The notes below the pieces were generated by a model. That model was not told the origin of the DNA. It made no database searches and was given only the letters and a program-made list of their open reading frames with translations. A stretch of 57,109 nucleotides of DNA from a virus (lineage: Duplodnaviria; Caudoviricetes): IMG/VR virus record IMGVR_UViG_3300034130_000016, positions 1 through 57,109 of that record; one strand, 5' to 3'. Of the stretch, positions 1,273 to 54,331 are shown piece after piece. A program made the translations under genes and the position numbers. Every line of letters starts with the position of its first letter. The first letter of the stretch is position 1.

Positions 1273-1486
1273 CCGCATCGTTTTCGATCATGATGCGGCG
1301 GACCGGCGGGGGTCGAACCTCGCCGGTCCACTGTCCCGGGCGCCCCGACATCTGTCCCCGGGATGTGTCACCCCCTGCCGTGCGCTGCCCGCAGAGCGCG
1401 GCCCGCCACGGCTCACGGGCACCGGGGCGGAGTCCGAACGCGGACTCCACGGCAGGGGCTCAAACTTCGTCCATCCCGAATGGACG
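1273..1486. ncRNA. candidate structured RNA or multi-hairpin intergenic element
   Basis: Stems 1273-1298, 1300-1329, 1372-1458 (multibranch) and 1468-1486; no credible ORF. Confidence 0.4.
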
Positions 1487-1543
1487 CGCTAGCCCCGACC
1501 GTGTAGTCTGGGAACTGACGGATCACACGATGGAGGAGATCAC

Positions 1544-2257
1544 ATGCAGCTCATGGACGGCGAGACCTGGACCGAATGGGTCGAGGACAACGCCGACAGC
1601 GACGAGGCCACCAAGCTGTCCGCCCTGCGCGAGAGCATCGCCGCGACCGCCCGGACCTGGGTGCGCTCCGGCCAGATCAGCCGCGACTGGGCCAACAAGA
1701 AGCTGGCCAAGCTGGGCGTCACCGACCAGATCCCCGGCGAGAACACCTACGTTCTGGAGGCGCCCGTCTCCGGCACGCTGGCGATCACCGTCCACGCCGA
1801 GACCCGCGCCGAGGCCGAGGAGAAGTTCCGCAACCAGCTCACCAGCAACTCCCGGGCGCACTCGGTGCCCGACGCCACCGTCACCGGGGACGTCTCGTTC
1901 CGCTCCGGCCCGGAGGACCCCGGCACGGCCGCCGCCGACGACGCGCCGACCACGGTCGACGCCACGCTGATGATGCTGCGTGAGGTGATCATGCTGGGCA
2001 ACATCTCCGGCCCCCGCTGGGACTGCGACACGGGCACCAACTCCGTGCTGGCGTCGTACGGCCTGGCGCCGCTCCCGCCGCGCCGGGCGTTCACGGTGGC
2101 CGTCCCCGTGGAGGCGGTCATGAAGACGACCGTGCACGCCTACGACGAGGGGACCGCCGCCCGTATCGCGGGCTGGCGCTGGGACGACGGTAAGCGCGGT
2201 TACGACGTGGACCTGGCCGTCTCGACCGACGTTCCCTCGGTGGCCGAGATCCACTGA
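1544..2257 (+). CDS. hypothetical protein
   Basis: GGAGGAG RBS, 237 aa, typical codon usage. Confidence 0.8.
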   Translation: MQLMDGETWTEWVEDNADSDEATKLSALRESIAATARTWVRSGQISRDWANKKLAKLGVTDQIPGENTYVLEAPVSGTLAITVHAETRAEAEEKFRNQLTSNSRAHSVPDATVTGDVSFRSGPEDPGTAAADDAPTTVDATLMMLREVIMLGNISGPRWDCDTGTNSVLASYGLAPLPPRRAFTVAVPVEAVMKTTVHAYDEGTAARIAGWRWDDGKRGYDVDLAVSTDVPSVAEIH

Positions 2258-2269
2258 TCGTCCGGCGTT

Positions 2270-2304
2270 TACAGCCCCTTGTGCAGCTCGCACAGGGGGC
2301 TGTA
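2270..2304. terminator. hairpin, probable terminator, overlapping the downstream promoter
   Basis: TACAGCCCC...GGGGCTGTA inverted repeat. Confidence 0.5.
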
Positions 2305-2320
2305 TGCTGTCAGCAGACAG
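2300..2320 (+). promoter_or_regulatory. 21-bp palindromic operator/-10 element (copy a)
   Basis: CTGTATGC-TGTCA-GCAGACAG with TATGCT -10, followed by a GAGGAGG RBS. Confidence 0.65.
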
Positions 2321-2335
2321 ATCGAGGAGGACACC

Positions 2336-6128: not shown

Positions 6129-7561
6129 CACAGCCGACTCTTCCCAGCGCGACCGCACAGAAGCAGGCCGCCGTTGAGGTCTTCGCCCAGTACGAGCCAC
6201 CCCTGTATGAGGCGTACCTGGAGATGATGCTGGAGTGGCTGGCCGCCGTGAAGACGGCCATGTTCGCCGGTGGTGTCGCCCGCCTCGGCCTGGTGCCCGA
6301 CCCGCTGACCGTGTTCTCTCAGACGCCGAAGTGGGCCGCCCTGTCCGCGAAGTACACCGCTGAGGTGGCGCGGGAGGTGCTGGCCGCCCCGTACCGGGAC
6401 CTGTTCGCCGACGGGACGCTGTTCGAGTCCCGGCCGTTCGTGCGCAACTGGATCGCTCAGCGGGAGAACCGGCTGGCCGCCGTCCCCAAGGAGGTCTTCG
6501 GCGCCGTCTCGCAGGTGATCAACGCGGCCACCCAGAACGGGGCGAGCATTCCGGACGTCACCGACCAGATCGAACAGTTGTTCGACGGCACGGATACGGC
6601 CAAGTGGAAGGCCCGCGCTCGCACCGTTGCACGAACCGAGGTCGTCGGCGCTTACAACGGTGGGCTGCACGACGCCTTCGCCATGATCGTCGAGAACGAC
6701 CCGGGCACCGACTGGGTGAAGAGGTGGCTCGCCACCGAGGACAGCCGTACCCGCCCGGACCATGTGGAGGCCGACGGGCAGACTGTCCCGTTCGCCCAGC
6801 CGTTCATCGTCGGCGGCTTCCAGATGATGCACCCGCACGACCCGGACGGGCCGCCCCACGAGGTGATCAACTGCCGGTGCGTCGAACTGCTGGAGATCAA
6901 AAACGAACCCACGGAGATGGGTAACCGGCAGTACAAGAACGGCTTCACCGCCTCCTACGGCTTCACCGGATCGCAGGGCCTGAGCCTCATGCAGGCCGTT
7001 TGCACCGACGGCCAGTTCTGTATGCAGACCCACAAGCCCGGCCTGTGCAAGGGCCAGAAGCGCGGCCAGACCGAACCCGGCGTACCGGACGAGGCCACCA
7101 AGACGCCCGCCCAGAAGGCCCAGGTCGCCGTCAAGGGGCTCTCCACCGCCATCCAGCAGGCCACCCAGGTTGCCCAGGCGAACATCACCAGCAACCCGAA
7201 GCTGGCAGCCATGGCCCGCCGCGCCGTCGCCGATTACCGCAAGGCGCTCCGCCCGCACCAGCAGACCCTGAAGGACGCCGCCCGCACCAACCAGGCGAAC
7301 CAGCGCACCGGCCAGCAGGACACCCGCCAGCAGGACTCCCTGGACCGGCAGAAGGCCAACGCCGCCCAGCGGGAAGAGCGGCACCGCGAGGCAGTCAAGG
7401 CCCGCGCGGAGAAGATCCTGGAACGTCGCGCCGAACGGGCGAAGGTTGCGAAGATGTCGCCCAAGCAGCGCACCGCCTACCACAAGGCGAAGGCCGCAGC
7501 GGCGAAGAAGCAGCGCGAGAAGGCCGAGAACCAGACCCTCAAGGAGGCGAGCAAGTCATGA
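6125..7561 (+). CDS. MuF-like minor head protein with basic helical C-terminal extension
   Basis: ARTVARTE, KRWLATEDSRTRPDH and EVINCRC MuF motifs. Confidence 0.9.
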   Translation: MTQPTLPSATAQKQAAVEVFAQYEPPLYEAYLEMMLEWLAAVKTAMFAGGVARLGLVPDPLTVFSQTPKWAALSAKYTAEVAREVLAAPYRDLFADGTLFESRPFVRNWIAQRENRLAAVPKEVFGAVSQVINAATQNGASIPDVTDQIEQLFDGTDTAKWKARARTVARTEVVGAYNGGLHDAFAMIVENDPGTDWVKRWLATEDSRTRPDHVEADGQTVPFAQPFIVGGFQMMHPHDPDGPPHEVINCRCVELLEIKNEPTEMGNRQYKNGFTASYGFTGSQGLSLMQAVCTDGQFCMQTHKPGLCKGQKRGQTEPGVPDEATKTPAQKAQVAVKGLSTAIQQATQVAQANITSNPKLAAMARRAVADYRKALRPHQQTLKDAARTNQANQRTGQQDTRQQDSLDRQKANAAQREERHREAVKARAEKILERRAERAKVAKMSPKQRTAYHKAKAAAAKKQREKAENQTLKEASKS

Positions 7562-8133: not shown

Positions 8134-8165
8134 GCAAGATCCAAAACGATGGAGGAGACGCACGG

Positions 8166-9409: not shown

Positions 9410-10293
9410 CGGCGCGAGCGCTGGTCACCGGATCGTCGGGGTTCGTCGGTCGGCACATGGCCGCCGAGCTGGCCCGGCGCGGCTGGGACGTGGCGGGGGT
9501 CGACATCGCTGAAGGGTTCGACGCCCTGGAGCATTTCCGGTTCGACACCCGCTGGGACCTGGTGGTGCACGCCGCCGCCTCAGCGCCACACAGGGCCGCC
9601 ATCGACACCGAGCCGCAGCACATGGCCAGGAACCTTCAGTTGGACGCCGCCATGTTCGACTGGGCCGTCCGCACCGGTCAGGGCCGCGTGCTGTACCTGT
9701 CCTCCTCGGCCGCCTACCCGATCGAATACCAGCGCGACAACGGTTACGCCGAGCCGCTGTACGAGGACATGACGGACCTGACCGACGCCCAGGAACCCGA
9801 CTCGGTGTACGGGTGGACGAAGCTGACCGGCGAGCGCATGGCCGCCGAGGCGCGTAAGGCTGGCCTGCGCGTCACCGTGGTCCGGCCGTTCTCCGGCTAC
9901 GGGGAGGACCAGAGCGAGGACTTCCCGTTCCGGGCACTGATCGAGCGGGCACGCCGCCGGGAGGATCCGTTCGTGATCTGGGGCAACGGGGATCAGGTGC
10001 GCGACTGGATCCACATCGACGACGTGATCGGTGGCGCGCTCGCCGTCGTGGAGTCCGGATCTGCTGGCCCGGTCAACCTGTGTACGGGGGTCGGCTTCTC
10101 GGTGGCGGAGCTGGCGTATATCGCCTGCGATCAGGTCGGGCACAAGCCGCGCTTCGAGTATTTGGCGGACAAGCCCGCCGGGGTCGCGTACCGGGTGGGC
10201 AATCCGGCCGTGCTGCACAACTTCTACCGGCCACGGATCAGCCTGCCCGAGGGGGTCGCGCGGGCACTGCAAGATCAAAAACAACCGCTATGA
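9406..10293 (+). CDS. NAD-dependent nucleotide-sugar epimerase/dehydratase
   Basis: VTGSSGFVG (GxxGxxG), LSSSAAY, YGWTK (YxxxK), RDWIHIDD. Confidence 0.92.
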   Translation: MTARALVTGSSGFVGRHMAAELARRGWDVAGVDIAEGFDALEHFRFDTRWDLVVHAAASAPHRAAIDTEPQHMARNLQLDAAMFDWAVRTGQGRVLYLSSSAAYPIEYQRDNGYAEPLYEDMTDLTDAQEPDSVYGWTKLTGERMAAEARKAGLRVTVVRPFSGYGEDQSEDFPFRALIERARRREDPFVIWGNGDQVRDWIHIDDVIGGALAVVESGSAGPVNLCTGVGFSVAELAYIACDQVGHKPRFEYLADKPAGVAYRVGNPAVLHNFYRPRISLPEGVARALQDQKQPL

Positions 10294-10300: not shown

Positions 10301-13300
10301 ATGACGACGCTCGGGATGCTGCTCACCGGCCGGGCCAACGGCAAGACCGCTGCGCAGCCTCTCGACATCAACCACCTGGCCGCCACCGTCGGCATCGCCC
10401 AGCGAGACCACATGATCGCCTCCGGCCAGCCCGGGGTGAAGCCGCTCGGAGATCTGCGAACCATCGTCGCCGCGCTCGCCGCATGGATCAACCAGGACGA
10501 CGACGCCCACGAGACCTGCTCCCTGACCGCCTGCCGCACCCCGCTGCACCCCGGCCCCTGCAAGGGCTGGAAGCACACCCTGCACAGCGTCTCCCCGCAC
10601 ATCTGGAAGCAGCTCGAAGACGAGCGGGTCAAGAAGGCCAACGAGCGGCGCGTCAAGCGCATCGCCGACCTCCGCTCGCAGAACAAGCCCATCCCCCGGC
10701 GCCTGCTCACCGAGATCAAGCCCAAGCCAGCCCCCACCGGCCAGCACCCGGCCAACAACGTCAAGGCCGTCCCCCTGGGGCAGGTCAACCAGAAAGCCGA
10801 CCTCGCCGGAGGTCAGGCCCACGCCGCCGGGCAGGCCGTCTCCAACGCCGCCCACGTGCAGGTCAAGACCGCCCCGCCCCTGCCCCTCGGCCCGAAGCAG
10901 AAGAAGCCCACCGTCGCCGGACGCGGACCCGCGTTCGTCATCACCCAGCCCAAGGTCACCGACACCTACAAGCTGGGTAAGGCTGACCAGATCACCCCGC
11001 AGCAATGGGCCGGTCTCACCGATGCCGACAAGGCGACCATCCGCAACGAGCTGACCGCCATCAAGGCGCGCGGGTTCGGCCCGCAGCAGAAGAAGGCCGA
11101 TGAGCTGCTGCTGAAGCTGCACTCAGGCAACAACCCCGGCACCGCCCCGGCGCTGACCCCCGGCACCCCGGGCACGGTGACCACCCCCGGCGGGCACACC
11201 TACCAAAAGGTCAGCCTCACCCCGGGAAAGGTCTCCCTCGGCCAGGCCGTCAAGACGCCGCCCTCGACCGCCCAGGCGGTCACCCACGCCCGCAGCCTCG
11301 ACCAGGCGCACGCCGCCCTGCGCATCACCGAGGCGATCTTCGGCAAGCAGAACACGGACGTCACCAAGCTGGCCGACGCCTTCAGCCAGATGAAGGCCAG
11401 CGGGACCGACATCACCCAGGACCCCAAGTTCCGGATCCTGGTGGACCGGCTGGCGAACGCCGCCCTGAAACTGGCCAGCGCCGACAACATGCCCGGCCTC
11501 GGGCATGGGACGAACGACGTCGGGATCACTGAGTTCAACCATGAGATCCGCGACCACCTGGCGGGCGCTAAGCCCGGCCTTCCGCCGCTGATCAAGCGGA
11601 TGCAGGACCACCACGACAATGCCGTGCTTGGTCCCGCCGTCCCGGCCGCACCCAGCCTGCCTCGCGGTACGCCCGACCTGCTCGACAACGTGCGCAAGGC
11701 GCAGGACCCCTCGGCGAAGCTCAGCCTCGCCGCCCGGACCTACGTCTACCGCAAGCTGTCCAAGGCGCAGTTCGACAGCCTCGACGACGGCACGAAGAAG
11801 AAGGTCCTCGACGACCTGGACGAGCAGATCGCCAAGGGCACCGGCCCCGGCAAGCTCGCCCAGGATCTGAAGGACACGTTCAAGCCGGGCGCGTCCGGGA
11901 CGCCCGCCCCCTCCACCCCGGCGGCCCCGGCCTCGTCGCCGGGCACCCCCTCCACCCCGAACGTCCTGTCGCCGGACGCCCAGCAGGCCCGCGCCGTGGC
12001 TGGCCGCGCCGTGCCCAAGGCGCACATGGCGAAGACCCAGACGGACGCCTACGGCAAACTGTCGAAGGCGGACTTCGATCAGCTCGACTCGACGACGCAG
12101 CGCAAGATCCGCGACGACCTGGCCAATGCGAAGGCGAAGTTCCTCGACCCGAAGAAGCAGCAGGCCGCGCAGCATCTCCTGGATCGTTTTGGATCAACTC
12201 ACACGACTCCGGCGCCGAACGCCCCGGCCGCGCCCGCTGTCGGCACGGGCTACAACGACCCGCAGACCCAGGCCGTCAAGGCAGCCTCGTCCGGCCTGAT
12301 CGACAACGACGAGGTGATCAAGACCGTCGCCCGCCTCAGCCCCGGGCAGGTCAAGAGCCTCTCCGAGGAGGACCGCAAGAAGATCATCGGACGCCTCGCG
12401 TTCGTCGCCACCCATCCGAAGGCCGCCCCGGAGCAGAAGGCCAAGGCCGCCGCCTACAAGCGGATCATCGAGGACGGCTCCCCCGCAGCGGGCGGCAAGT
12501 GGGACCACGCCCCGTCGATCGGCGAGCTGCACGCGGAGGAGAAGAAGACCGGCGCCACGGCCGCCATGGACGCCCTGAAGGCCGCCGAGACGAAGTCGGG
12601 CGCTCTCGGGATGAGCCGCGACGACCGGCTCAAGGCCCTGGGCGCCCTCTCGAAGGCGCAGTTCGACGCCCTCACGCCCGAGCAGCAGCGGAAGATCACC
12701 GACGCCCTGAACGAGCTGCACACCTCGAACAAGAACGTCAACGGCAGCACCGTCCTGGATCCCGCCGCCGGGGACGCGCTGACCAAGTACACCGGCCTGC
12801 ACCCCGGCGTCGCCCGGATGCAGCAGGCCGAGGCTGACTTCCGCGCCGGGAAGATCGACGCGAACAAGCTCTGGGAAGAGATGCTGCACGCCCGGCTCCA
12901 GTCGCCCGGCGCGTACGGCAGCCAGACGTCGCCCGCCGCGCTGCTGGCCAAGGAGAGTCAGCGGATCGCCGAGGACAACCCGAAGCTGCCCCTCTGGCTG
13001 CGCGCCACCATGATCGATAACCCGTACGGCGCCCCCGGCGGCCTGTACCACTCGATCAGCGAAGCCTCGAACAAGTACAACTGGGAAGACGCACCCCGGC
13101 TCTCCTCCTCGGACATCTCCGACCTGTTCTCGGCCAACCTGGACCACCTGGCGGGCGCCCACCCGATCCACGCCGAAGCCGTCAAGGCGCTACGCGAGCA
13201 CGTCATCCTCACCGGCCTGCGCGGCCAGCCCGGCGTGCCCTCGGGGAGCCCCTGGTCCTCGGCCACCCGCAACCATGTCGTCGACAACTTGCTGCACATC

Positions 13301-15943
13301 TCCAGCACCGGCGACCATGACGTACCCGCCGAGCGGCTCCGCGAATTCCACACGCTGTCCCCGACCGCCCAGTCCCGGGTGAAGGCGGTTCTCCGGGAAC
13401 GCCTCGCCAACCAGACCAACTCGTACGCGAAGACCGGCACCTACATCACGTTGCGGGACATCGACGGCGACCCGAAGCTTTCCGACGACGCCGAAGCCGC
13501 CCTGCGTGCCGCCGCCGACAGCTACGCCAACCCGAACAACCTGGACATCTACCGCAAGCTGGATCCGGCTGACTACAACAGGTTGCCTGACTACGTGCGC
13601 GGCTCCATCAACACGCACCTGATGCAGCTCCAGAACCGCGCGGAAGCCAGGCCCCCGGTCCCCTGGACGCCGCAGGACAACCCGTTCAAGGTGATGCCCC
13701 TGTCCCTGGTGGCGCACCTGTCCGGTACCCGCAACGCCTACCACGATCGGGCCACCCGCAACGCCGCCGACATCGCCCAGTACGGCACGAAGATCATCGA
13801 CCCGTCCTCGCGAACCGAGGCGTACCGGTCGCTGGGCTCATTCCAGACCTTCTCGACGCTCACGCCGTTCGAGCGGTCCAAGGTCACCGACGACCTGGAC
13901 AAGATCGAAAACGATTCGTCGTTGACGCTCAGCCAGCGCTACGACGCCGCCTTCACCAAGGACTTCGCCATCGGCGAACCCAAGGTGACCGCCTCGAAGT
14001 TCGACGCGAACCAGATGATGGCCATCGGCTCAGTCAGCCCGAGCCGCACCGTGGCCGATCACGTCGCCGCCTCCAACCTCAACAACCTGCCCAAGTCCGA
14101 GTACGACTCGCTGCCCCCGGCATTCCGCGACGCCATCGACGAGCGGATCAAGTCGCTGCCCGGCACCGACCAGCAGGTGCTCAACGCCAAGTTCCACCCG
14201 AACGCACCGCAGACCGCCACCCCGGCCGGAGTCACCCCGACGACCGTGCAGACGGGCGTGCCGCCGCACGTGCAGGCCGCCCTGGACACCATCTACGGCG
14301 TACACCCCAAGTCGCACACCATGGCGCACCAGCTCTCCACCTACGGGGCGCTGCGCGGCGGAGACTTCAACAACCTGAACAGCCAGGAACAGGGCCACCT
14401 CCTCGGCGACCTGTCGTTCATCCAGACCACCGCCAAGGGGCCGTCCGCCGCCAAGGCGAAGCTGCTGATCGACCGGTTCACCCCGCCCGGAACCCCGTCC
14501 GGCCACGTCCCGACCGGCGCGATCATCCCCCCGGCCAACGCGGTTGCCGGTCAGGTCCGCTACGCCACCCCGCTCAAGGGCCTGGCGAAGGCGAAGGACT
14601 CCGGCAAGTCCGGCGACGGCTGGATGTCGCTTCCCGGCGGCGGGCGGGTCTGGGGCCACCACGGCGCGGCTGGTCTGCTGCTCCAGCACACCGACTCCCA
14701 GACCGGCGAGAAGCGCTACCTGATGGTGCAGCGCGGTCCGGCCATCTCCGACCCCGGAAAGTGGACGTTCCCCGGCGGCGCCTCCGACTCGAAGGAGACC
14801 CCGCACGAGGGTGCGACCCGCGAGACGATCGAGGAGCTGGGTCTCAAGGACGACGTGTTCAAGGACGCCCTGGTCCACGGCGACCACACGTTCACGGTGC
14901 CGAACAGCTCGTGGAAGTACACGACGGTGGCCGCGTCCGTCCCGACGATGATCAAGCCGAACCTGACCACCGCCCACGCCCGCGCCGAGACCTCCGACGC
15001 GAAGTGGATGACCCTCGACGAGATCCGGGCACTCGACAAGGCGGGCAGCCTGCACCACCCCATTGCGGGCGGCAAGCTGGAGCAGAACGTCATCAGCCTG
15101 TACCCGACCGGCGGTACCGGCGTCACGTTGGGGCAGGTCGCCCGGCCCGGACCGGTCACCAAGCGGCTGGGGCGCCTGAACATGCCGTCCGGTGGCCGCC
15201 AGGCGCCCGCCAACTTCAACGCCTGGCCGCACCCCCACAAGCAGTCGAAGGGCAAGAACCTGGTGTCGGACAAGACGGCCATCGACTCGATGCGGCAGCA
15301 GGTCAAGCAGGACCGCAAGCTCTACGACGGCAAGACCGCTGACGGTCGCCTGGCTGCCATCGGCGCCATGCAGGGCTTCGACGACACCCCGACCGTGGAG
15401 AGCAAGGCCGAGATCGACCGGCTCCTGGCGACCGGCGACTACATCGAGGCGTGGCGTGGCGTCACCGGCGCCGGTGGCGGCTGGTCGGCACGTAGCCGGG
15501 GCGGCTCCGGCGGCAAGACGGCTGCGGACATCAACGAGGAGATGCGAACCGGCCCCGCCTACTACGGCAAGGGGATCTTCGGGAACGGCTACTACCTGGC
15601 GACCAGCAAGCGGGTTGCCGAGCAGTATTCGGACCACTCCAAGGGTTCGATCGTGCGCGTCCTCATCCCGAAGAGCGCCGTCATGGAGAAGTACGACAAG
15701 GTAGAGCGGGAGGCGCAGGCCAACTCGTCGCGGATCTCGAAGGCCAAGGGCTCCAGCTACGAGGTCAGCACGTTCTGGGATCCGGGCCGCTGGGGGGCGG
15801 CCAGGGGCCTGGACGGTATCGAGATCAACCCGCATCACCGCGCCCACGGCGGCGGCGGCGCGGGGCACGTCGCATCCCACGGAAAGCCCGCCTTCAACTG
15901 GCTGAACCGGTCCGTACTGATCGTCCAAAAGGAGCCCGGATGA
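10301..15943 (+). CDS. giant (1880 aa) repeat protein with Nudix hydrolase and C-terminal ADP-ribosyltransferase-like domain
   Basis: Nudix box GGASDSKETPHEGATRETIEELG with MutT3-like DGW..G.RVWG..GAAGLLL; terminal WRG...GKGIFGNGYYLATSKRVAEQY...LDGI; about 10 helical repeats. Confidence 0.85.
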   Translation: MTTLGMLLTGRANGKTAAQPLDINHLAATVGIAQRDHMIASGQPGVKPLGDLRTIVAALAAWINQDDDAHETCSLTACRTPLHPGPCKGWKHTLHSVSPHIWKQLEDERVKKANERRVKRIADLRSQNKPIPRRLLTEIKPKPAPTGQHPANNVKAVPLGQVNQKADLAGGQAHAAGQAVSNAAHVQVKTAPPLPLGPKQKKPTVAGRGPAFVITQPKVTDTYKLGKADQITPQQWAGLTDADKATIRNELTAIKARGFGPQQKKADELLLKLHSGNNPGTAPALTPGTPGTVTTPGGHTYQKVSLTPGKVSLGQAVKTPPSTAQAVTHARSLDQAHAALRITEAIFGKQNTDVTKLADAFSQMKASGTDITQDPKFRILVDRLANAALKLASADNMPGLGHGTNDVGITEFNHEIRDHLAGAKPGLPPLIKRMQDHHDNAVLGPAVPAAPSLPRGTPDLLDNVRKAQDPSAKLSLAARTYVYRKLSKAQFDSLDDGTKKKVLDDLDEQIAKGTGPGKLAQDLKDTFKPGASGTPAPSTPAAPASSPGTPSTPNVLSPDAQQARAVAGRAVPKAHMAKTQTDAYGKLSKADFDQLDSTTQRKIRDDLANAKAKFLDPKKQQAAQHLLDRFGSTHTTPAPNAPAAPAVGTGYNDPQTQAVKAASSGLIDNDEVIKTVARLSPGQVKSLSEEDRKKIIGRLAFVATHPKAAPEQKAKAAAYKRIIEDGSPAAGGKWDHAPSIGELHAEEKKTGATAAMDALKAAETKSGALGMSRDDRLKALGALSKAQFDALTPEQQRKITDALNELHTSNKNVNGSTVLDPAAGDALTKYTGLHPGVARMQQAEADFRAGKIDANKLWEEMLHARLQSPGAYGSQTSPAALLAKESQRIAEDNPKLPLWLRATMIDNPYGAPGGLYHSISEASNKYNWEDAPRLSSSDISDLFSANLDHLAGAHPIHAEAVKALREHVILTGLRGQPGVPSGSPWSSATRNHVVDNLLHISSTGDHDVPAERLREFHTLSPTAQSRVKAVLRERLANQTNSYAKTGTYITLRDIDGDPKLSDDAEAALRAAADSYANPNNLDIYRKLDPADYNRLPDYVRGSINTHLMQLQNRAEARPPVPWTPQDNPFKVMPLSLVAHLSGTRNAYHDRATRNAADIAQYGTKIIDPSSRTEAYRSLGSFQTFSTLTPFERSKVTDDLDKIENDSSLTLSQRYDAAFTKDFAIGEPKVTASKFDANQMMAIGSVSPSRTVADHVAASNLNNLPKSEYDSLPPAFRDAIDERIKSLPGTDQQVLNAKFHPNAPQTATPAGVTPTTVQTGVPPHVQAALDTIYGVHPKSHTMAHQLSTYGALRGGDFNNLNSQEQGHLLGDLSFIQTTAKGPSAAKAKLLIDRFTPPGTPSGHVPTGAIIPPANAVAGQVRYATPLKGLAKAKDSGKSGDGWMSLPGGGRVWGHHGAAGLLLQHTDSQTGEKRYLMVQRGPAISDPGKWTFPGGASDSKETPHEGATRETIEELGLKDDVFKDALVHGDHTFTVPNSSWKYTTVAASVPTMIKPNLTTAHARAETSDAKWMTLDEIRALDKAGSLHHPIAGGKLEQNVISLYPTGGTGVTLGQVARPGPVTKRLGRLNMPSGGRQAPANFNAWPHPHKQSKGKNLVSDKTAIDSMRQQVKQDRKLYDGKTADGRLAAIGAMQGFDDTPTVESKAEIDRLLATGDYIEAWRGVTGAGGGWSARSRGGSGGKTAADINEEMRTGPAYYGKGIFGNGYYLATSKRVAEQYSDHSKGSIVRVLIPKSAVMEKYDKVEREAQANSSRISKAKGSSYEVSTFWDPGRWGAARGLDGIEINPHHRAHGGGGAGHVASHGKPAFNWLNRSVLIVQKEPG

Positions 15944-20760: not shown

Positions 20761-20830
20761 CTGTCTCTTCGCCCCCCGAGGAGACGCCAGCACTATCTCA
20801 CGCGACGTTTTCGATCATGGCCGTTCGGGG

Positions 20831-25109: not shown

Positions 25110-25802
25110 ATGACGGCCGTATGTCAGGCCCCCATCCAGGGCACCACCATGCGGGTCCAGACAGTCAACTCGTGCGGTACGCCCCTGGTGGGCTCCTGCG
25201 TGTCGGCCGTCTCGACCGGCTTCGTCTCGGTGGAGATGCAGGATCAGGTCGAAGCGGGTCAGGAGATCGTCGTCCTGAACGCGGCTGGCGTGATGTGCGT
25301 CAACGAGAAGTCGCCGAAGCAGCTCAAGTGGATCGAAGTCACGATCACCTTCTGCAACGTCGACCCGGAACTGTTCGGCCTGATCACGGGTTCGACGCTG
25401 GTCCTGAACAACGCCGCCACCCCGGCGGCGGTCGGCTTCCAGACCCGCACGAGCAACTACGCGGCCGGTGCGTTCGCTCTGGAGGTTTGGACGAACATGT
25501 CCAACGCCCAGTGCGTCACGATCGGCACGTTCTCGCTGGTGCCGTACGGGTACTTCCTGCTGCCGAACATCGTTGAGGGCACCGTCGGTGACCTCAAGAT
25601 CGAAAACAGCAACGTCTCGTTCACGGTGTCGGGCCGTACCAAGCAGGGCACCAACTGGGGCGTCGGCCCGAAGACCGTGCTCGCCAACATGACGAACGGT
25701 ACGGCCTCCAGCCTGCTGGTCGCCCTGCCGAACGACACGCACCGGCACCTCCAGTGGACGTACCTGGCTCCGCCCGCCGCGTCCTGCGGCTGCGCGAGCT
25801 GA
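25110..25802 (+). CDS. major tail protein
   Basis: G..MRV...CG.P, NAAG..CV, FCNVDPEL, FALEVWT and YGYFLLP motifs; followed by a hairpin. Confidence 0.82.
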   Translation: MTAVCQAPIQGTTMRVQTVNSCGTPLVGSCVSAVSTGFVSVEMQDQVEAGQEIVVLNAAGVMCVNEKSPKQLKWIEVTITFCNVDPELFGLITGSTLVLNNAATPAAVGFQTRTSNYAAGAFALEVWTNMSNAQCVTIGTFSLVPYGYFLLPNIVEGTVGDLKIENSNVSFTVSGRTKQGTNWGVGPKTVLANMTNGTASSLLVALPNDTHRHLQWTYLAPPAASCGCAS

Positions 25803-28756: not shown

Positions 28757-29112
28757 GCGAGCTGACCGCTCTGGTGGAGCTGGGCGGGCGTCAGATCGAG
28801 ATGCGCAAGCCGACCGACGGCGCGCTAGTCGTCCTGGCCCGTACGTTCCGGGGACTTCCCGACAAGATCGAAAACGATACCGAGTTGAGCGATGAGCAGC
28901 GTGACCGGCTCATCCGCAACCTCGGCACGCTCGGCAAGGTCGTTGAGGGCATGATCGTCAAGGATGCCGACAAGGACTGGCTGGATGACGCGATGATCGA
29001 CGGCGACGTGTCGGCAGAGGACGTCTTCGGCGCCATCAAGGTGGCGGGCGAGAAGATCAACGGCGCAGGCGGCCCGGTCAAGGCGGCGGCTTCGGTCCGG
29101 CGACACCGATGA
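28753..29112 (+). CDS. tail assembly chaperone candidate
   Basis: 119 aa, VELGGRQIEMRKPTDG; upstream of the tape measure gene. Confidence 0.55.
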   Translation: MSELTALVELGGRQIEMRKPTDGALVVLARTFRGLPDKIENDTELSDEQRDRLIRNLGTLGKVVEGMIVKDADKDWLDDAMIDGDVSAEDVFGAIKVAGEKINGAGGPVKAAASVRRHR

Positions 29113-38887: not shown

Positions 38888-39231
38888 CCCCCCAGACCCT
38901 GGGCACGTTCGGCGTGTACGTCTCGGCAATTCTCTCCACCGTCGGCTTCGTCAGCTTCGTCACGCTGGCCCGCTTCTGGCAGTCCGGCCGGGGCGGCTGG
39001 CTCGTCTTCTGGGACCTGCTCATGGTCGCGTGGATCCTGGATCTCAGCTCGATCTCCCACCTCTTCGACCCGCCGTGGTTCGCGTGGTTCCGGGTGGCGA
39101 CGTTCGCCGTCGGGTTCCCGGCGCTGCTGGTGTGGCGTCTCCAGATCATTTTCGATCTTCAGCTCCGGGACCGGTGGCGCCGCAGGGCGTACCGTGGGGC
39201 AGACAGCCAACAAGGGGAGGCGCAGGGGTGA
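38884..39231 (+). CDS. holin-like membrane protein
   Basis: Three TM helices directly before the endolysin. Confidence 0.6.
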   Translation: MTPQTLGTFGVYVSAILSTVGFVSFVTLARFWQSGRGGWLVFWDLLMVAWILDLSSISHLFDPPWFAWFRVATFAVGFPALLVWRLQIIFDLQLRDRWRRRAYRGADSQQGEAQG

Positions 39232-41492: not shown

Positions 41493-41637
41493 GGTCGGCT
41501 ATCCTATCCGTCGTTTTTGATCTTGCGCTTCTTGTGTTTGGGCCGGTAGGAGAGCTGGAGGGCCAGCAGTTCCCGGCGCCGGGCGGCGGCCTCCCGGCGC
41601 TCCTGCGCCCGACGCTGAGTCCGCCGCCCCCGGCTGT

Positions 41638-46743: not shown

Positions 46744-46745
46744 GC

Positions 46746-48827: not shown

Positions 48828-49184
48828 ATGTTCAACCCGGTAGCACCACCCTGGTACGTGGCCCTGTCCCTCATCGCCGCCCTGGCCGCCGTCGCCTGGT
48901 TCTTCGCCCGCTGGCCGGAGTCCACCGACCCCTGGGCCAAGCCCGCCGGGCGCACCCACCGGCACCGCACCGGCGACATCGCCACGCCGTACCGGCTGCG
49001 TACGTGGGACGAGCTGATCGCCGAAAACGAGGCGGCAATCATGCCGGTCATCTCGGCCCCCCCGGCGCCCGCCCCCGTGTTCGACCCGCTCAACCACGAC
49101 ACCACCACCCTGGCCGAGGTGGAGAAGTTCCTGGCCACGCTGGTCATCACCGAGAACACCCGCGAACTGGCGACGGTCCGGTGA
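48828..49184 (+). CDS. membrane protein
   Basis: GAGGAGG RBS; N-terminal TM helix. Confidence 0.65.
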   Translation: MFNPVAPPWYVALSLIAALAAVAWFFARWPESTDPWAKPAGRTHRHRTGDIATPYRLRTWDELIAENEAAIMPVISAPPAPAPVFDPLNHDTTTLAEVEKFLATLVITENTRELATVR

Positions 49185-50098
49185 GCACGTCCCCCGAGCG
49201 AGACATCCTGATCGAATCCGTCCGGACCTACCCCGTGCGCAAGTCCATGGGTCCGCTGAGCGGGCTCGGCGGAAGCATCAAGGCCGAGGGCCTGCGCCAG
49301 CCCCTCACCCTCTGGACCGACGGAACCCTCATCTCCGGCGCCCGTCGCCTGCGCGCCCACTTCCTGATGGCCGGTGCACTCGACGGCAGCCAGTACCGCC
49401 GGATCAAGGCCGTCTTCGTCGATACCATCGAGGACGCCGCCAAGCGCCTCACCGCCGACATGCAAGACGACGTTGACGACTCGGCCCGGCCGATGAAGTG
49501 GTCCGAGGTGTGCCGCCTCTGGGAGCTGCTGCGTCGCCTGGACGAACCGGCCGCCATCAAGCGCGCCCAGGCCGCCCGCCGCCGTGGCGTCGAACTGCGC
49601 CGCAAGACCTACACGGGGGAGCGCCCCCCGGGCCGGTCGCCGCATCACAGCGACGACTACGCGCTGAGCGTGCTCTGTGAGCCGTTCGACATCTCGGGGT
49701 CCACCGCCCGGCGCCTCTGGTCCGTCTACTCGATGGCGACCGGTCTTCGGCGCGTCTCCGAGGAGAGGCAGGCGGCGGCCGTCGCCGCCCTGGCCGCCAT
49801 CGACTCGAAGGAAAGCACCATCTCCGCCAACTATCAGCGGTTGATGCGCGGCTCCATCACCCCCGTACCGGCCCCCCCGGCGGCGGTCGTGGCGTCCGCC
49901 GCCGCCGCCAAGCAGCTCACCGCATGGGAACGGTCCCTCCCGCAGTTGGAGGGGCTGACGACCGGCCTGAGCGCCCTGGGTGCCCCCAACTCCGAACTGG
50001 CCTGGGAGCAGGTCGGTCCGGCGCACGCCCGGCTGATGAAGGTCCGCCGGGACCTCGACAAGATCATCAGGCAGATGAAGGAGACCAACAAGTCATGA
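49181..50098 (+). CDS. ParB N-terminal domain protein
   Basis: SIKAEGLRQPL, LISGARRLRA (GxxRxxA). Confidence 0.8.
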   Translation: MSTSPERDILIESVRTYPVRKSMGPLSGLGGSIKAEGLRQPLTLWTDGTLISGARRLRAHFLMAGALDGSQYRRIKAVFVDTIEDAAKRLTADMQDDVDDSARPMKWSEVCRLWELLRRLDEPAAIKRAQAARRRGVELRRKTYTGERPPGRSPHHSDDYALSVLCEPFDISGSTARRLWSVYSMATGLRRVSEERQAAAVAALAAIDSKESTISANYQRLMRGSITPVPAPPAAVVASAAAAKQLTAWERSLPQLEGLTTGLSALGAPNSELAWEQVGPAHARLMKVRRDLDKIIRQMKETNKS

Positions 50099-50895
50099 GC
50101 AACCCGAAGACCGGCTTCGAGATGGTCCAGCGCAAGGTCGGCGACCTCTACGTTGACTCGAACGTCCAGCGCTCCCTGCGTGACTCCCGGGTCAAGCAGC
50201 TCGCCGCGAGCTTCCGGCCCGACGCCCTCGGTGTGCTCACCACGTCGTACCGATCGGCCAAGCGGATCCACGTCATCGACGGCCAGCACCGTTACTGCGC
50301 CGCCGAACTGGCCGAGTACTCCGGCCCCATCATGACGATGCAGTACTACGGGCTGAGCATCCCGCAGGAAGCCGCCCTCTTCCGGCTGCTCAACGACACC
50401 GACAAGGTGTCCAAGGTCGATGCCTTCCTGGTCTCCTGCGTCGAAAAGAACCCGGACTCGCTGCGGCTGGCCGAATCCATGACCCGTCACGGCTGGCACG
50501 TCGGCGCGGGCGGTACCGCCGCCTCCCGGATCACTGCCATCGGTAGCCTGGAGCGCGTCTACGCCAAGTCCCCCGACGCCGCAGAGGCCACCCTGGCGGT
50601 CCTCGCGGCGGCGTTCGGTCACCGCTCGGCCGCCGTGCAGGGGCCGATGATCCTGGGCCTGGGTCTGGTGCTCGCCCGGCACACCGACCCGGCCCCCGAG
50701 GACGGACCGAAGATCGACGTGAACGAGCTGATCAAGCGCCTGTCCAACGTTCCCGGCGGCCCGGACGGGATCGTCGGCAACGCGCGGGGCCTGAAGATCA
50801 CCTACACCGGTGACCTGTCCAAGCAGGTCGCCCGGGTCATCGTGGACCTCTACAACCTGCGGAAGCGCACCAACGCGCTTCCGCAGTGGGTGTGA
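50095..50895 (+). CDS. ParB/Srx-superfamily DGQHR protein (DUF6551-like)
   Basis: VDSNVQR.L, VIDGQHR, EAALF..LN. Confidence 0.8.
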   Translation: MSNPKTGFEMVQRKVGDLYVDSNVQRSLRDSRVKQLAASFRPDALGVLTTSYRSAKRIHVIDGQHRYCAAELAEYSGPIMTMQYYGLSIPQEAALFRLLNDTDKVSKVDAFLVSCVEKNPDSLRLAESMTRHGWHVGAGGTAASRITAIGSLERVYAKSPDAAEATLAVLAAAFGHRSAAVQGPMILGLGLVLARHTDPAPEDGPKIDVNELIKRLSNVPGGPDGIVGNARGLKITYTGDLSKQVARVIVDLYNLRKRTNALPQWV

Positions 50896-51275: not shown

Positions 51276-51679
51276 TGGCTAACTGGGCCTGGCCGCACAC
51301 CCCCGCCAGCAACTGCGCCCGCCTCGTCCTGGCCGGTGGCCCGTTCGACGGTGAAGAGGTCGCCTTCCTGCCCCCCGACCTCGCCGCCCCCGTGCAGATC
51401 GTCTGGTCCGGCTGGTTCCCGTGGGGTTTCAGCGCCTACCTGTACGAGTGGCACGGCGAGACGACCATGGACCGTGGCCGCACCGACGCCCTGATCTACC
51501 GCCCGCCCATCACCCAGGCCGCCGACCTGCGCGTCCACCGTGGCCGCCGCGTGGACCCCGACGAGATCCCCCCGCAGGTCGCCGAGGACGTCGAGGTATG
51601 GGCCGGTGCCCCTGCGGTGTGGGCCAGCGCGATGGAGTCCCTGGGCGTCCCGAAGGAGCTGCTATGGCCCGGCCTGTGA
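51275..51679 (+). CDS. hypothetical protein
   Basis: GAGGAG RBS; L.GGPFDG motif. Confidence 0.7.
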   Translation: MANWAWPHTPASNCARLVLAGGPFDGEEVAFLPPDLAAPVQIVWSGWFPWGFSAYLYEWHGETTMDRGRTDALIYRPPITQAADLRVHRGRRVDPDEIPPQVAEDVEVWAGAPAVWASAMESLGVPKELLWPGL

Positions 51680-51879
51680 AGGTCTGGCTGCTGTGGTCGT
51701 CGCGCGTCGACCCGTACAGCGCGTGGGATCTCATTGACGTGTTCGCCGACGAGAAGGTTGCGGAACAGGTCAAGGCCGGGCTGATCGGTAAGCCCAGGCA
51801 CCGTGACCGGCTGTTCGGCGTCTGGGATGACGATGAGGACTTCCCGGACCTGGTCGTCCGGCCGCACCGTCTGCACTGA
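51676..51879 (+). CDS. hypothetical protein
   Basis: VKVWLLW...LIDVFADE..AE. Confidence 0.6.
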   Translation: MKVWLLWSSRVDPYSAWDLIDVFADEKVAEQVKAGLIGKPRHRDRLFGVWDDDEDFPDLVVRPHRLH

Positions 51880-51909
51880 CCGGTAGGCTGGCTCCCGTAG
51901 GAGGAGCCC

Positions 51910-52644
51910 ATGACACGCCGACCGAAGCGCAAGGGAAACGACCACTCTCGCGCCCCCGAAGTACTCAACGCCCTGGAGCGCAAAGAGCTGGAGTACGACC
52001 CGGCGATAGACCCGTGGCTGAAGCAGCCCGCCGAGTCGCCCCGCAACCACGGCATGTTCCTGATGTACCGCGACCTGGGCCGGATCCGCACCGTCGCCCA
52101 GGTCGCGGAGATGTCCTCGCTCACGTACGGCGCCGTGACCCGCATCGCCCGGTTCGGCAAGTGGGTGGAGCGGGCCGGACGCTGGGATGCCGAACTGGAC
52201 CGCATCGCCGGTATCCGCCTCCAGGACGCCCGCGAGGAGATGGCCCGCCGCCACGCGACCGCCGCCGGGAAACTGATGAAGAAGGCGCTGGAGCGCCTGG
52301 AGACCCTGGACATCTCCGCCATCAGCCCGCACGCCCTCGTGCTCATGCTCGACACGGCCGCCCGCATCGAGCGGGCCGCCCTGGGCCTGGAGACGCTCAA
52401 CAAGGGCGCCACCACCGGCCAGCAGACGTCCGTTACCGTGGCCGCCAGCACCGACGCCGCCGGGAAGCCCGCCGTCCGCGTCGAGGTCGGTGTGCAGCAC
52501 GACCGGATCATGGCGACGCTGGACGAGATGGTGAAGCGCATGAGCCCCGACCAGATCGCCGCCGGGTACGAGGAGCTGACCGCGAGCGCGAAGGAGGCGC
52601 TGCGCGGCCTTGACGCCGCCCTTCCTGCACCTCCTCCGCAGTGA
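51910..52644 (+). CDS. terminase small subunit candidate (HTH)
   Basis: ES......F..YRDLG..RT, WVERA..WD; upstream of TerL. Confidence 0.65.
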   Translation: MTRRPKRKGNDHSRAPEVLNALERKELEYDPAIDPWLKQPAESPRNHGMFLMYRDLGRIRTVAQVAEMSSLTYGAVTRIARFGKWVERAGRWDAELDRIAGIRLQDAREEMARRHATAAGKLMKKALERLETLDISAISPHALVLMLDTAARIERAALGLETLNKGATTGQQTSVTVAASTDAAGKPAVRVEVGVQHDRIMATLDEMVKRMSPDQIAAGYEELTASAKEALRGLDAALPAPPPQ

Positions 52645-52880
52645 GGGCAGGCGCGGCCGGGGGTCGTCCTGCCGGGCGAATGGACGACCCCCGGGCACCG
52701 CGCCCATGCGAACGGATCGGCCTGCACAACTGCGCGCCGCTCGGCCGCTGGGCGAACCACGACGCCAGCCACGACCCGTGCATGAGCTGCGGATACGACC
52801 GCCTGGATCCGGCACCCGGGCAGTGCCTCCAGCCGAAAGGCCACTGGTCAGCGCCATCCCCGGATAGTTTTCGATCATGA
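52641..52880 (+). CDS. small Cys/His ORF
   Basis: GTGA/ATGA overlaps bridge TerS and TerL. Confidence 0.4.
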   Translation: MRAGAAGGRPAGRMDDPRAPRPCERIGLHNCAPLGRWANHDASHDPCMSCGYDRLDPAPGQCLQPKGHWSAPSPDSFRS

Positions 52881-54331
52881 GCCTGTCCGCCGCCCAGAAG
52901 CTCGCCCTGCTCCCTCCGCCCCTGCGCCGCATGTGGCTGAGCAAGCAGACCCGCGAGACTCTGGAAGACATCCAGAAGGGCGCCTGGTGGTGGCTCGGAC
53001 GCCCAGAACAGTTCCGTCCGCCCGGCGACTGGCTGGTCTGGCTGATCCGCTCCGGCCGAGGGTGGGGCAAGACCCGCACCGGCGCCGAAGACCTCCTGGA
53101 CCGCGTGTTCGAGCACCCGGTAGACGCCTTCGGCCAGCGCACCGAGTGGCTCGTGATCGCCGAGACGCTCAACGACTGCCGTACCGCCTGCATCGAGGGC
53201 AACTCGGGCCTGCTGTCGATCCTGCACCGCATGGGCCTGGAGAAGGGCAAGGACTTCTGGTACCGCAAGTCCCCCAAGCTGATGATCGAATTCGCCACCG
53301 GCCAGATCATCTACTTCGAGGGTGCCGACAACGCCGACGTCGGCCGTGGCTTCAACGCCGCCGGTGCCTGGCTGGACGAGCTGGCGAAGTGGCGCTACAC
53401 CTACGACGCCTGGTACGAGGGCCTGCTTCCGTCGCTGCGCGCCCCGCTGATCGGCGACCATCCGCGCGCCGTGGTCACCACCACCCCGAAGCCGATCAAG
53501 CTGCTGATCGAGTGGCAGCACGAGACGGACGGCACGGTCGTCATCACCACCGGCTCGATCTTCGACAACATCATGAACCTGAGCCGGAAGGTCATCGACG
53601 CCCTCAAGAAGAAGTACGAGGGCACCCGGGCCGGACTCCAGGAGCTGTACGGCTACCTCCTCGAAGAGATCGAGGGCGCGCTGTGGAACCGGCCCATGAT
53701 CGAAAACAATCGCATCAAGGCCGCTGACCTGCCCGAACTGAAGCAGGTCGTCATATCCATGGACCCCGGCGCCACCGGGGCAGGCGACGAAACCGGGCTG
53801 ATCGCCGCAGGCCGCGACTACCACGACCGCGACTACGTGCTGGCCGACTGGACCAAGAAGATCGTCGGGCACGCCGCCGCCCGCCGCGCCTGGCAGATGT
53901 TCATCCAGTACGACGCCACCTGGATGGTCATCGAGACCAACATGGGCAAGAAGTGGCTCATGCAGGTCATCACCGACGCCTACGCGGAGATGCAGAAGGA
54001 GCACGCCCCCGGGTGCGACGACGAGGACTGCAAGGGATGCCTCTTCCCGCCCGGCCCGCCCCCGGTCAAGGAGGTCACCTCTCTGGCCGGGAAGAAGCTG
54101 CGCGCCCAGCCCGTCGCCTCCCGCTACGAACAGAACCGCTGGCACCACGTCGGCACGTTCATCGAACTGGAGGACCAGATGTGCACGTGGGTGCCCGAGG
54201 ACTCGGCCAGCCCCGACCGCATCGACGCCCTCGTGCAGGCCGGACTGTTCCTCATGGGCCGGGAGCACACGCTGGTCCGCATCGCCGCCCCCGCCGACAC
54301 GCTCATGCCCGCCAGCTCCGCCTACGGGTAG
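52877..54331 (+). CDS. terL: terminase large subunit
   Basis: Walker A SGRGWGKT, Walker B WLDE, TTTP, nuclease DP...SPDRIDA. Confidence 0.95.
   Translation: MSLSAAQKLALLPPPLRRMWLSKQTRETLEDIQKGAWWWLGRPEQFRPPGDWLVWLIRSGRGWGKTRTGAEDLLDRVFEHPVDAFGQRTEWLVIAETLNDCRTACIEGNSGLLSILHRMGLEKGKDFWYRKSPKLMIEFATGQIIYFEGADNADVGRGFNAAGAWLDELAKWRYTYDAWYEGLLPSLRAPLIGDHPRAVVTTTPKPIKLLIEWQHETDGTVVITTGSIFDNIMNLSRKVIDALKKKYEGTRAGLQELYGYLLEEIEGALWNRPMIENNRIKAADLPELKQVVISMDPGATGAGDETGLIAAGRDYHDRDYVLADWTKKIVGHAAARRAWQMFIQYDATWMVIETNMGKKWLMQVITDAYAEMQKEHAPGCDDEDCKGCLFPPGPPPVKEVTSLAGKKLRAQPVASRYEQNRWHHVGTFIELEDQMCTWVPEDSASPDRIDALVQAGLFLMGREHTLVRIAAPADTLMPASSAYG

Follow-up and report, generated by a model that had tools for sequence, protein, structure and literature searches.

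The genome of a tailed phage (Duplodnaviria; Caudoviricetes), IMG/VR virus record IMGVR_UViG_3300034130_000016, contains an AT-rich word, WGATCVAAAACGA, that is repeated along its length; the whole 57,109-bp stretch is called the window below. We found that this word belongs to an asymmetric site of ~25 bp, which is retained in related phages against codon bias, within genes and between them, and in either orientation. The motif is probably a DNA site for a protein, and the protein that reads it is fairly likely to be encoded by the phage; that its main effect is on transcription is a tentative suggestion. Taken as a whole, the best explanation, which we hold with about even confidence, is that the copies are scattered sites bound by a regulator or organizer of the genome that the phage itself encodes.

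Enrichment of the motif

The record represents a complete viral genome (IMG/VR class, direct terminal repeats; 27 bp are common to both ends) with a GC content of ~68%, in which a caller based on third-codon-position GC (GC3) predicted 82 genes covering 91% of the sequence. The exact 13-mer WGATCVAAAACGA was present in 10 copies, compared with none in 100 dinucleotide-preserving shuffles, in agreement with an earlier note on this DNA that put the number of chance copies of the 11-bp core far below one. With up to one mismatch allowed, the 12-mer GATCVAAAACGA was found 17 times (shuffle mean 0.25, maximum 3). The strongest over-represented 10-mers of the genome were all pieces of the motif, which was the sole strongly over-represented word. 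All 18 positions given in the earlier note were recovered, with 10 exact matches to the 12-mer, six with one mismatch, and two with two mismatches (25598 and 30988); as that note had stated, most (12/18) lie within called genes, and both orientations are seen. When scored with a weight matrix built solely from the sites of relatives, the window's own sites being left out, 17 of the 18 reached 21.7–37.9 bits, the next best matches in the genome 16.3 (12298) and 12.8 bits, and a reversed-sequence control at most 10.3 bits. Site 30988 scored 8.0 bits, and from its sequence it is probably not a working copy here. The match at 12298 (GATCGACAACGA; ≤1 mismatch), absent from the earlier list, is marginal.

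The enrichment persisted under codon-preserving shuffles, a check that the earlier note had proposed. Shuffling codon order within genes lowered the number of copies with ≤1 mismatch from 17 to 5.42 and of exact copies from 10 to 3.00, the residue corresponding to about five and three copies outside called genes that the shuffle leaves untouched. Shuffling synonymous codons with the amino acids fixed lowered the same counts to 11.4 and 4.04. Both shuffles thus reduced the counts, and therefore the encoded peptide and the codon choice are both non-random.

The copies in the window are listed with the coordinates of the 16-bp core; where a listed copy is named by a single number elsewhere, that number falls within its core.

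1277..1292, minus strand: intergenic, following the WhiB-like gene and next to a tRNA-like stretch; exact 12-mer; 29.1 bits; aligned copy in 3/3 relatives alignable here
6892..6907, plus strand: in the MuF-like head gene, E-I-K-N-E; 22.1 bits; site in 10/12 aligned genomes
8135..8150, plus strand: intergenic, 16 nucleotides (nt) before the glycosyltransferase-like gene at 8166 and just upstream of GGAGGAG; 30.1 bits; region not alignable to relatives
10270..10285, plus strand: at the promoter of the gene for a 1,880-amino-acid (aa) protein, 4 nt upstream of TATGAT (10289–10294), followed by 6 nt and ATG 10301
12183..12198, minus strand: antisense in the 1,880-aa gene; 22.1 bits; 5/7 aligned genomes
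13900..13915, plus strand: in the 1,880-aa gene, K-I-E-N-D; 32.0 bits; lineage-specific, 2/6
17050..17065, plus strand: in gene 16379–18391, M-I-E-N-D; top score, 37.9 bits; 9/10 aligned genomes
20804..20819, minus strand: between convergent genes 20491–20715 (plus) and 20831–21778 (minus); 27.9 bits; 3/5
25595..25610, plus strand: in the major tail protein gene, K-I-E-N-S; two mismatches; 21.7 bits; 8/13 at ≤1 mismatch; relatives keep GATCGAAAACGG here
28863..28878, plus strand: in gene 28753–29112, K-I-E-N-D; 35.8 bits; 13/13 genomes
30985..31000, plus strand: doubtful weak copy in the tape-measure gene; two mismatches; 8.0 bits, below the control maximum of 10.3
31436..31451, minus strand: antisense in the tape-measure gene, coding strand N-V-F-D-L; 36.1 bits; 10/13 genomes
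39145..39160, minus strand: antisense in a holin-like gene, I-I-F-D-L; 27.8 bits; 11/12 genomes
41510..41525, minus strand: at the promoter of gene 41010–41492 (minus), 4 nt upstream of TAGGAT (41506–41501), followed by 8 nt and ATG 41492; 34.3 bits
43881..43896, plus strand: intergenic, in a leftward gene block; reverse complement forms the T-tract of a terminator-like hairpin at 43897–43915 (minus); 31.2 bits
51242..51257, plus strand: 3' end of gene 50892–51275, shortly before gene 51272 with its ribosome-binding site and GTG start; 33.7 bits; 9/10 genomes
52864..52879, minus strand: abutting terL, plus strand TAGTTT-TCGATC-ATG (52877); site in 10/12 genomes
53695..53710, plus strand: in terL, M-I-E-N-N; 31.6 bits; 12/13 genomes

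Some further observations concern the surroundings of these copies. A version of the motif whose A-tract has three As and not four (GATCGAAACGA) occupies the divergent intergenic region at 40614–40675, between genes 40446–40613 (minus) and 40676–41008 (plus), and may be a decayed or variant site. A tRNA-like T-arm (GGTTCGACCCC, minus strand), recognized by eye within ~1290–1370 (minus), directly adjoins the copy at 1278, and copies abut tRNA genes in relatives too (G004 7605, G002 169, and G017 44879, in oriented coordinates). An accessory cluster at 8166–10293 within the head-gene block, comprising a glycosyltransferase-like gene, an S-adenosylmethionine (SAM) methyltransferase, and a nucleotide-sugar epimerase, is found in 2–5 of the 12 relatives and has the copies at 8138 and 10273 on its two sides. 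The proposal of the earlier note that the GATC within the motif could make binding methylation-sensitive found no support, as GATC is common (432 copies) and no Dam-type enzyme was recognized; a PHROG ‘DNA methyltransferase’ match was obtained only at gene 8166–8849, which also matched as a glycosyltransferase and is present in 5/12 relatives.

Conservation across the clade

A TerL search of IMG/VR yielded 21 full-length relatives of the same clade (76–87% amino-acid identity). The motif was present in 21/21 of these records, with 14–21 copies per near-complete genome and none for a reversed-pattern control, and in 5/5 further clade genomes found via the ParB-like protein described below (11–21 copies). 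Outside the clade, the outgroups G022, G023, and G025 had no copies, Microbacterium phage MementoMori had none, and phiAsp2 had a single match with one mismatch. G022 is related to the clade (TerL 51–52% identical, structural proteins 31–53% identical), and a scan for over-represented words revealed no comparable repeated word of its own. The unrelated IMG/VR phage contig G023 (TerL 36–37% identical) has its own repeat family around CTAGGACAG and GGGGAAACTGTCC, with 5–8 copies and an observed/expected ratio >100 (loci L118–L119).

Twelve relatives were fetched in full, and these share 72–76% nucleotide identity with the window over 56–82% of its length. The exact position of about ten copies is kept, including 28866 (13/13), 53698 (12/13), 39146 (11/12), 6895 (10/12), 31437 (10/13), 52865 (10/12), 17053 (9/10), and 51245 (9/10). 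There is also turnover: many sites are confined to one to three genomes, yet the total per genome stays at 14–21. The window lacks two sites that are frequent in relatives (equivalents of 30655 and 5876), and 67 of the relatives' sites fall in DNA that does not align to it. Synonymous conservation in relatives, a second check named in the earlier note, was pronounced: the third-position A of the VAA codon was kept in 71/85 aligned cases, compared with 2,699/10,885 for other A/T third positions. Usage of GAA is 19.5% and of AAA 6.5%, so that this A is kept against codon bias.

The distribution of sites along the alignments bears on the idea that they serve DNA cutting or exchange, either as nicking sites for the HNH protein or the ParB-like proteins with a nuclease fold, or as homology linkers used by Erf for module swaps. 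Alignment breakpoints fell within 30 bp of a site in 43 of 560 cases, compared with 10.7 for random positions; several intergenic copies flank accessory genes, and HNH and Erf proteins are encoded. However, the excess was not significant at the level of junctions (5.1 relatives per junction vs 3.4, p = 0.08), the best-conserved copies lie within conserved genes, and copies occur on both strands, whereas the nicks of T5-type phages fall on one strand. We consider a cutting or exchange role quite improbable.

An A-tract-centred, AT-rich word in DNA of 68% GC could also be a nucleation or exclusion site for a host nucleoid protein (e.g. Lsr2), or the site of another host regulator. Against this, the GATC and CGA flanks are strictly conserved, unlike the sites of loose AT-rich binders, and the related phage G022 lacks the word. 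Among 401 sampled genomes from the phylum of a Solirubrobacteraceae metagenome-assembled genome (MAG), there was at most one exact copy per genome (13 single copies vs six for the reversed control), a sample outside which the true host may lie. Reading by a host factor therefore seems, if anything, slightly less probable than cutting or exchange. Six near-matches in the Solirubrobacteraceae MAG were rejected as a host version of the word, being K-I/L-K-N-E repeats of one unrelated 1,996-aa protein. The K-I/L-K-N-E-A-V-T repeats of this protein (G032 C8 189222–195212; locus L267 3222–9212) mimic the motif core, and their DNA is a source of false positives for motif scans. A 16-mer scan of the whole collection returned, among the matches listed, mainly single chance ones.

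Anatomy of the site

We collected 226 sites with ≤1 mismatch from the window and the 12 fully fetched relatives and grouped them by flank similarity into 79 clusters. The 13 genomes are related and the 226 sites are hence not independent, and cluster counts are given wherever possible. Positions −3 to +12 of the cluster-weighted logo read C-A-W-G-A-T-C-V-A-A-A-A-C-G-A-T. A further element of lower strength, G-A-G-A-W-G, occupies +16 to +21, 3–4 bases past the 16-bp core, and a purine word follows the core in 54/79 clusters, compared with 13% of random positions. The C fraction in the downstream element was 0.12 at sense, 0.08 at antisense, and 0.05 at intergenic sites, against a background of 0.34. 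Because the element is purine-rich and C-poor in all three classes alike, it is part of the DNA signal and does not simply result from ribosome-binding sites or codons. The whole site thus spans ~25 bp and consists of CAWGATCVAAAACGAT, 3–4 free bases, and the purine-rich GAGAWG. It is asymmetric: symmetry is limited to the ATCG..CGAT arms, where it is partial and without co-conservation, and the strongly conserved CAW has no mirror. Flank folding over the 79 clusters did not exceed that of random DNA (mean −8.8 vs −9.6 kcal/mol). A terminator function was considered and rejected, since the T-rich strand pairs with a hairpin only at 43884, and weakly at 51245, with no general hairpin association.

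Codon phase and strand

Among the 79 clusters, 47 are intragenic and 32 are intergenic or at gene boundaries, the latter roughly twofold over the non-coding fraction. Same-strand coding copies are almost uniform in phase (119/123 overall; 9/10 in the window, K/M/E-I-E/K-N-x), the usual in-gene layout being xxG-ATC-VAA-AAC-GAx, which encodes K/M-I-E/K-N-D. Such uniformity would be expected of an RNA-level or peptide-level signal, namely an mRNA element or a selected I-E-N-D peptide. We therefore estimated the coding cost of each phase with a Markov model specific to codon phase, which was trained on sequence with every site masked and applied to the coding DNA of the 13 genomes. The favoured phase was ~70 times likelier than the next same-strand phase and 7–23 times likelier than the two usable antisense phases. 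Exact in-phase copies numbered 57 against 0.08 expected, and exact antisense copies 11 against 0.014; the observed phase counts rank by coding cost and are two to three orders of magnitude above expectation. The higher coding cost of the other phases and strand thus accounts for both the uniform phase and the preference for sense copies.

Antisense copies make up 12 of the 47 coding clusters and lie in hydrophobic contexts (N-V-F-D-L in the tape measure, I-I-F-D-L in the holin-like protein). The 32 intergenic clusters include 14 in sense orientation, 7–27 nt upstream of a start, and six reversed before a start, with two in both groups. Because copies are found antisense and, between genes, in both orientations, the observations point to a DNA-level signal that is neither RNA nor peptide. 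A signal of the latter kinds was also rejected on the masked-model cost order and on the retention of rare codons, GAA and AAA being kept though GAG and AAG encode the same peptide, and no hairpin is associated with the motif; we regard it as very improbable. The simplest reading is that the DNA needs the site at many places and carries it, at each of them, in the orientation that the local protein tolerates. The independence from the direction of transcription claimed in the earlier note is borne out. Its proposal that the copies are binding sites gains a selected DNA-level signal, as expected of protein-binding sites, with binding and a specific function still at the level of prediction. For annotation more generally, these data caution that a perfect codon-phase bias can stem from coding cost alone, without a peptide or RNA signal.

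Promoter overlaps

A TANNNT hexamer shortly before ATG is the geometry of a leaderless actinobacterial promoter. Two copies lie exactly 4 nt upstream of a −10 hexamer (10273, TATGAT; 41511, TAGGAT), and the copy at 52865 abuts the ATG of terL, all as first described in the earlier note. At the 1,880-aa gene, the motif spans approximately −31 to −17 of the leaderless-type promoter, and the layout of motif, N4–5, TAGGAT/TATGAT/TATGCT, N6–7, and ATG is kept in 11 genomes; the same arrangement precedes the unrelated gene 41010–41492 (minus). The terL copy is reversed and extends from the −10 hexamer to +3. A G-to-T variant in this copy creates a TANNNT hexamer 6 nt before the ATG on the plus strand, and this CTA variant is present in 9/10 relatives with an ungapped alignment there. 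Three copies (terL, the 1,880-aa gene, and gene 41010) therefore overlap leaderless-type promoters. Many further intergenic copies lie immediately upstream of ribosome-binding sites in either orientation, a placement that may simply be unavoidable in gaps of 10–40 nt.

These arrangements could mean that the motif is itself a promoter element, read by RNA polymerase together with a phage activator or sigma-like factor in place of a −35 element, for which the T4 MotA box offers a comparison. At two promoters unrelated to each other, exactly 4 nt separate the end of the word from a TANNNT that is itself 6–8 nt before the start, and for the 1,880-aa gene this layout is the one kept in 11 genomes. 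Related Microbacterium phages are described as having asymmetric intergenic repeats together with a sigma factor gene (PMC7302621). However, a well-spaced TANNNT is rare over the 226 sites (T at +16 in 19 and at +17 in 49), and clear −10 hexamers are found just at the 1,880-aa gene and 41511. Most copies are intragenic, with 12 coding clusters antisense; the terL copy is reversed over the −10 hexamer and start; the other sigma-A-like promoters of the genome have no motif copy; and no sigma factor or RNA polymerase gene was recognized by Pfam or PHROGs. A promoter element is accordingly about as improbable as a cutting or exchange site.

Candidate reader proteins

For dispersed sites read by a phage-encoded protein, the best candidate readers are two adjacent ParB-like proteins, a possible but doubtful assignment that draws on their predicted fold and on co-occurrence with the motif.

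49181..50098, plus strand: candidate reader 1, a 305-aa orphan ParB/Noc/KorB-like protein (fold, co-occurrence)
50095..50895, plus strand: candidate reader 2, a 266-aa DUF6551 ParB-like protein (Pfam DUF6551, 1.4e-7; fold)

The AlphaFold2 (AF2) model of the 305-aa protein (predicted local distance difference test score, pLDDT, 89.1) comprises a nucleotide-binding N-domain, a helical domain of DNA-binding type, and C-terminal helices. Foldseek matched the model to pNOB8 ParB, Noc, CDP- and CTPgammaS-bound ParB, Spo0J, and KorB (E 1e-5 to 3e-3). Residues 5–97 aligned with the nucleotide-binding domain of Myxococcus ParB (Z 11.2; root-mean-square deviation 2.6 Å over 86 residues; 27% identity), and residues 104–234 aligned modestly with the DNA-binding domains of DNA-bound Noc and Spo0J-parS (Z 5.3 and 5.0). 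KorB and pNOB8 ParB aligned across both domains (Z 8.6 and 9.2). The protein has >120 homologues at 50–59% identity, some with PF02195, and S52, G53, R55, and R56, which correspond to the arginine-rich GxRR box of the nucleotide pocket of ParB proteins, are invariant in 40 sequences of the family (consensus ISGxRRLRA). The model of the 266-aa DUF6551 protein (AF2 pLDDT 82.7) had Noc, ParB, and KorB as its top Foldseek matches, and DGQHR is invariant in this protein. A search of both sequences against Protein Data Bank sequences gave no match, and a 127-aa neighbour had no usable match in the Protein Atlas.

Both genes were present in 12/12 relatives and undetected in the motif-less G022, in which no ParB-type Pfam match was found among the 60 of 84 called open reading frames (ORFs) scanned (non-structural regions and the terL end). 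The IMG/VR loci retrieved with the 305-aa family are all in clade genomes (24/24), and the clade members carry the same word. Orphan ParB-fold proteins are described as frequent in phages, with suggested roles in anti-defence or phage–host interaction, and DUF6551 fusions as binding CTP or ATP in vitro (PMC12704722). The two encoded ParB-like proteins fit the idea of genome organization or segregation put forward in the earlier note, and their role as binders stays at candidate level. The WhiB-like protein was rejected as reader or cofactor, its gene being present in 1/12 relatives.

A model for the dispersed sites

From the motif, its selection at the DNA level, its indifference to orientation, the promoter overlaps, and the protein folds, all of which are observed, we infer that a protein binds, which protein it might be, and that repression could be an outcome. 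A clade-specific, sequence-specific protein would bind each asymmetric ~25-bp site on double-stranded DNA, and selection would keep ~17–20 sites per 57-kb genome, or about one per 3 kb, with the site placed on the opposite strand in hydrophobic coding segments. Bound at the three promoter copies, the protein would occlude RNA polymerase, and the other copies would be further loading or roadblock sites over the genome, making the reader a genome-wide regulator or organizer. If the ParB-like pair is the reader, it may act like the KorB clamp of RK2, loading at dispersed operators and repressing promoters. A more specific proposal, unlikely in its entirety, is that the two diverged ParB-fold proteins form a heteromeric, nucleotide-gated clamp that loads at ~18 sites embedded in coding sequence and times or silences late promoters, or organizes the genome. 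Two different subunits could account for an asymmetric site, and the heteromeric asymmetry of such a clamp would match that of the 25-bp site; the late promoters would be those of terL and of the large gene for an injected protein, and the phage would be lytic.

Several observations weigh against this picture. Co-occurrence with the motif is common to a dozen other genes; those present in 12/12 relatives and undetected in G022 include Erf, the initiator-like protein, terS, and several small proteins. The ParB-like genes neither contain nor adjoin a motif copy, the stretch 43884–51245 being empty. The sites known for ParB, Noc, and KorB are palindromic, with a dimer as reader, whereas the motif is asymmetric. 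MementoMori also has two adjacent ParB-like genes (PMC7302621) and has neither the motif nor any high-copy dispersed word, its top words reaching 5–6 copies. Most copies are far from any promoter, and the gene calls came from a home-made GC3 caller and are approximate, so that individual start codons may be off. In favour of the picture, gaps between sites were more even than random in 12/13 genomes (coefficient of variation 0.51–0.74 vs 0.92), an even spacing that is suggestive only, as the 13 genomes share ancestry and the tests are not independent.

Comparison with known systems

The stoperators of Cluster A phages are described as a short asymmetric word in >15 copies per genome, some in promoters and others distant (PMC9283540). 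By this description, Cluster A (L5 gp71, the TipsytheTRex repressor) resembles the present phage in having an asymmetric many-copy word with some copies at promoters, and its reader, a monomer with two DNA-binding domains, provides a ready model for an asymmetric 25-bp site (PMC9283540). The motif could accordingly belong to a stoperator-type system, in which the copies are operators or elongation blocks for the immunity repressor of a temperate phage; ~17–20 copies genome-wide, with some at promoters, fit the description of L5 (PMC9283540). Unlike stoperators, however, the motif is not oriented with transcription, and a reversed L5 site is described as losing repression (PMC9283540). The motif is also mostly intragenic, at a cost in rare codons (47/79 clusters, instead of short intergenic gaps), and the sequences are unrelated. 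No repressor, integrase, or recombinase was recognized by Pfam or PHROGs, which left many small proteins without assignment, and no integrated clade member or prophage copy was found among 185,579 species genomes, in which the best TerL match was 41%. A stoperator-type system is thus improbable, although less so than the other alternatives considered here.

RK2 carries 12 OB sites, and the NBS sites of Noc, like IR1–4 of N15, are scattered over their genomes. Dispersed sites read by a phage-encoded protein find a parallel in KorB/OB of RK2, a ParB fold without a classical centromere role, with dispersed operators and a similar replicon size (PMC11790492). KorB is reported to repress by loading and sliding, with operators partly at promoters and partly distant (PMC11790492). 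In that system, as described, a dimer recognizes the palindromic OB, and KorA acts together with KorB (PMC11790492), whereas here the site is asymmetric, no KorA-like partner is known, and binding is predicted. Noc/NBS, ParB/parS, and N15 SopB/IR1–4 likewise have ParB-family readers and several specific sites, N15 being a phage (PMC7205306). Their sites are palindromic and far fewer per kb, and the present phage shows neither the ParA partner nor the plasmid-prophage life style of N15.

Dispersed repeats are described in other actinophages, including the start-associated sequences of Cluster K, the 17-bp repeats of Cluster O, and clade-specific asymmetric repeats just upstream of ribosome-binding sites in Microbacterium phage Clusters EC, EI, and EG (PMC7302621). 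The latter three comprise the nearest cultured relatives by capsid protein. EI phages also have two adjacent ParB-like genes (PMC7302621). In the same description, the repeats number 5–12 copies, all intergenic and in one orientation (PMC7302621), in contrast to 17–21 copies here, ~60% intragenic and in both orientations. Because features that define the stoperator and ParB–parS families were looked for and not found here, we do not assign the motif to either. What is new relative to published cases is the combination of ~60% intragenic copies, both orientations, no recognized lysogeny genes, and an encoded orphan ParB-fold pair. No description of the word turned up in the literature searched, and such searches cannot prove absence.

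Gene content and other features of the genome

Pfam and PHROGs revealed a siphovirus-type structural block with portal, MuF-like protein, a 612-aa capsid protein, tail tube, and tape measure. They also recognized terS, terL, Erf, an HNH protein, a replication-initiator-like protein, a WhiB-like protein, a macro-domain protein, and a sugar-modification cluster. These profiles recognized no integrase, recombinase, repressor, ParA, sigma factor, or polymerase, with many small proteins left without assignment, and a Pfam scan of 81 proteins gave no ParA, CbiA, or AAA_31 match. By capsid protein, the genome is closest among cultured phages to Actinoplanes phage phiAsp2 (41% identity) and Microbacterium phages (37–40%), and the host is therefore, as judged from sequence, a high-GC actinobacterium.

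The 1,880-aa ORF (10301–15943) lies in the middle of the structural block behind its leaderless-type promoter, has a NUDIX domain (residues 1467–1580) as its only recognized domain, and is present over >40% of its length in just 6/12 relatives; its product may be a packaged multi-domain protein. Two Rfam tRNA matches above the gathering score, at 55402–55471 (plus) and 56404–56527 (plus), are not in the ARAGORN output, and the second, at 124 nt, exceeds the length of a plain tRNA. The divergent 132-bp region 48657–48788, between genes 48306–48656 (minus) and 48789–49184 (plus), contains a promoter-like match (TTGACA-18-CATGAT) and no motif copy, and is probably an early control region.

Implications

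Dispersed clade-specific words recur in actinobacteriophages, and beyond the Cluster A repressor almost none has a known reader. The present case is unusually clean, with a 25-bp logo, ~80 independent site contexts, selection against codon bias, and three promoter overlaps, which predict a phenotype. The clade also pairs concrete orphan ParB-fold proteins with a concrete candidate site, making the question testable by gel shift. If the ParB-like pair did prove to be a clamp loading at these sites, they would constitute the first cognate site set, and provide a function, for the orphan ParB-like proteins that are widespread in phages, and rare codons in structural genes would be the price that the virus pays for its loading sites.

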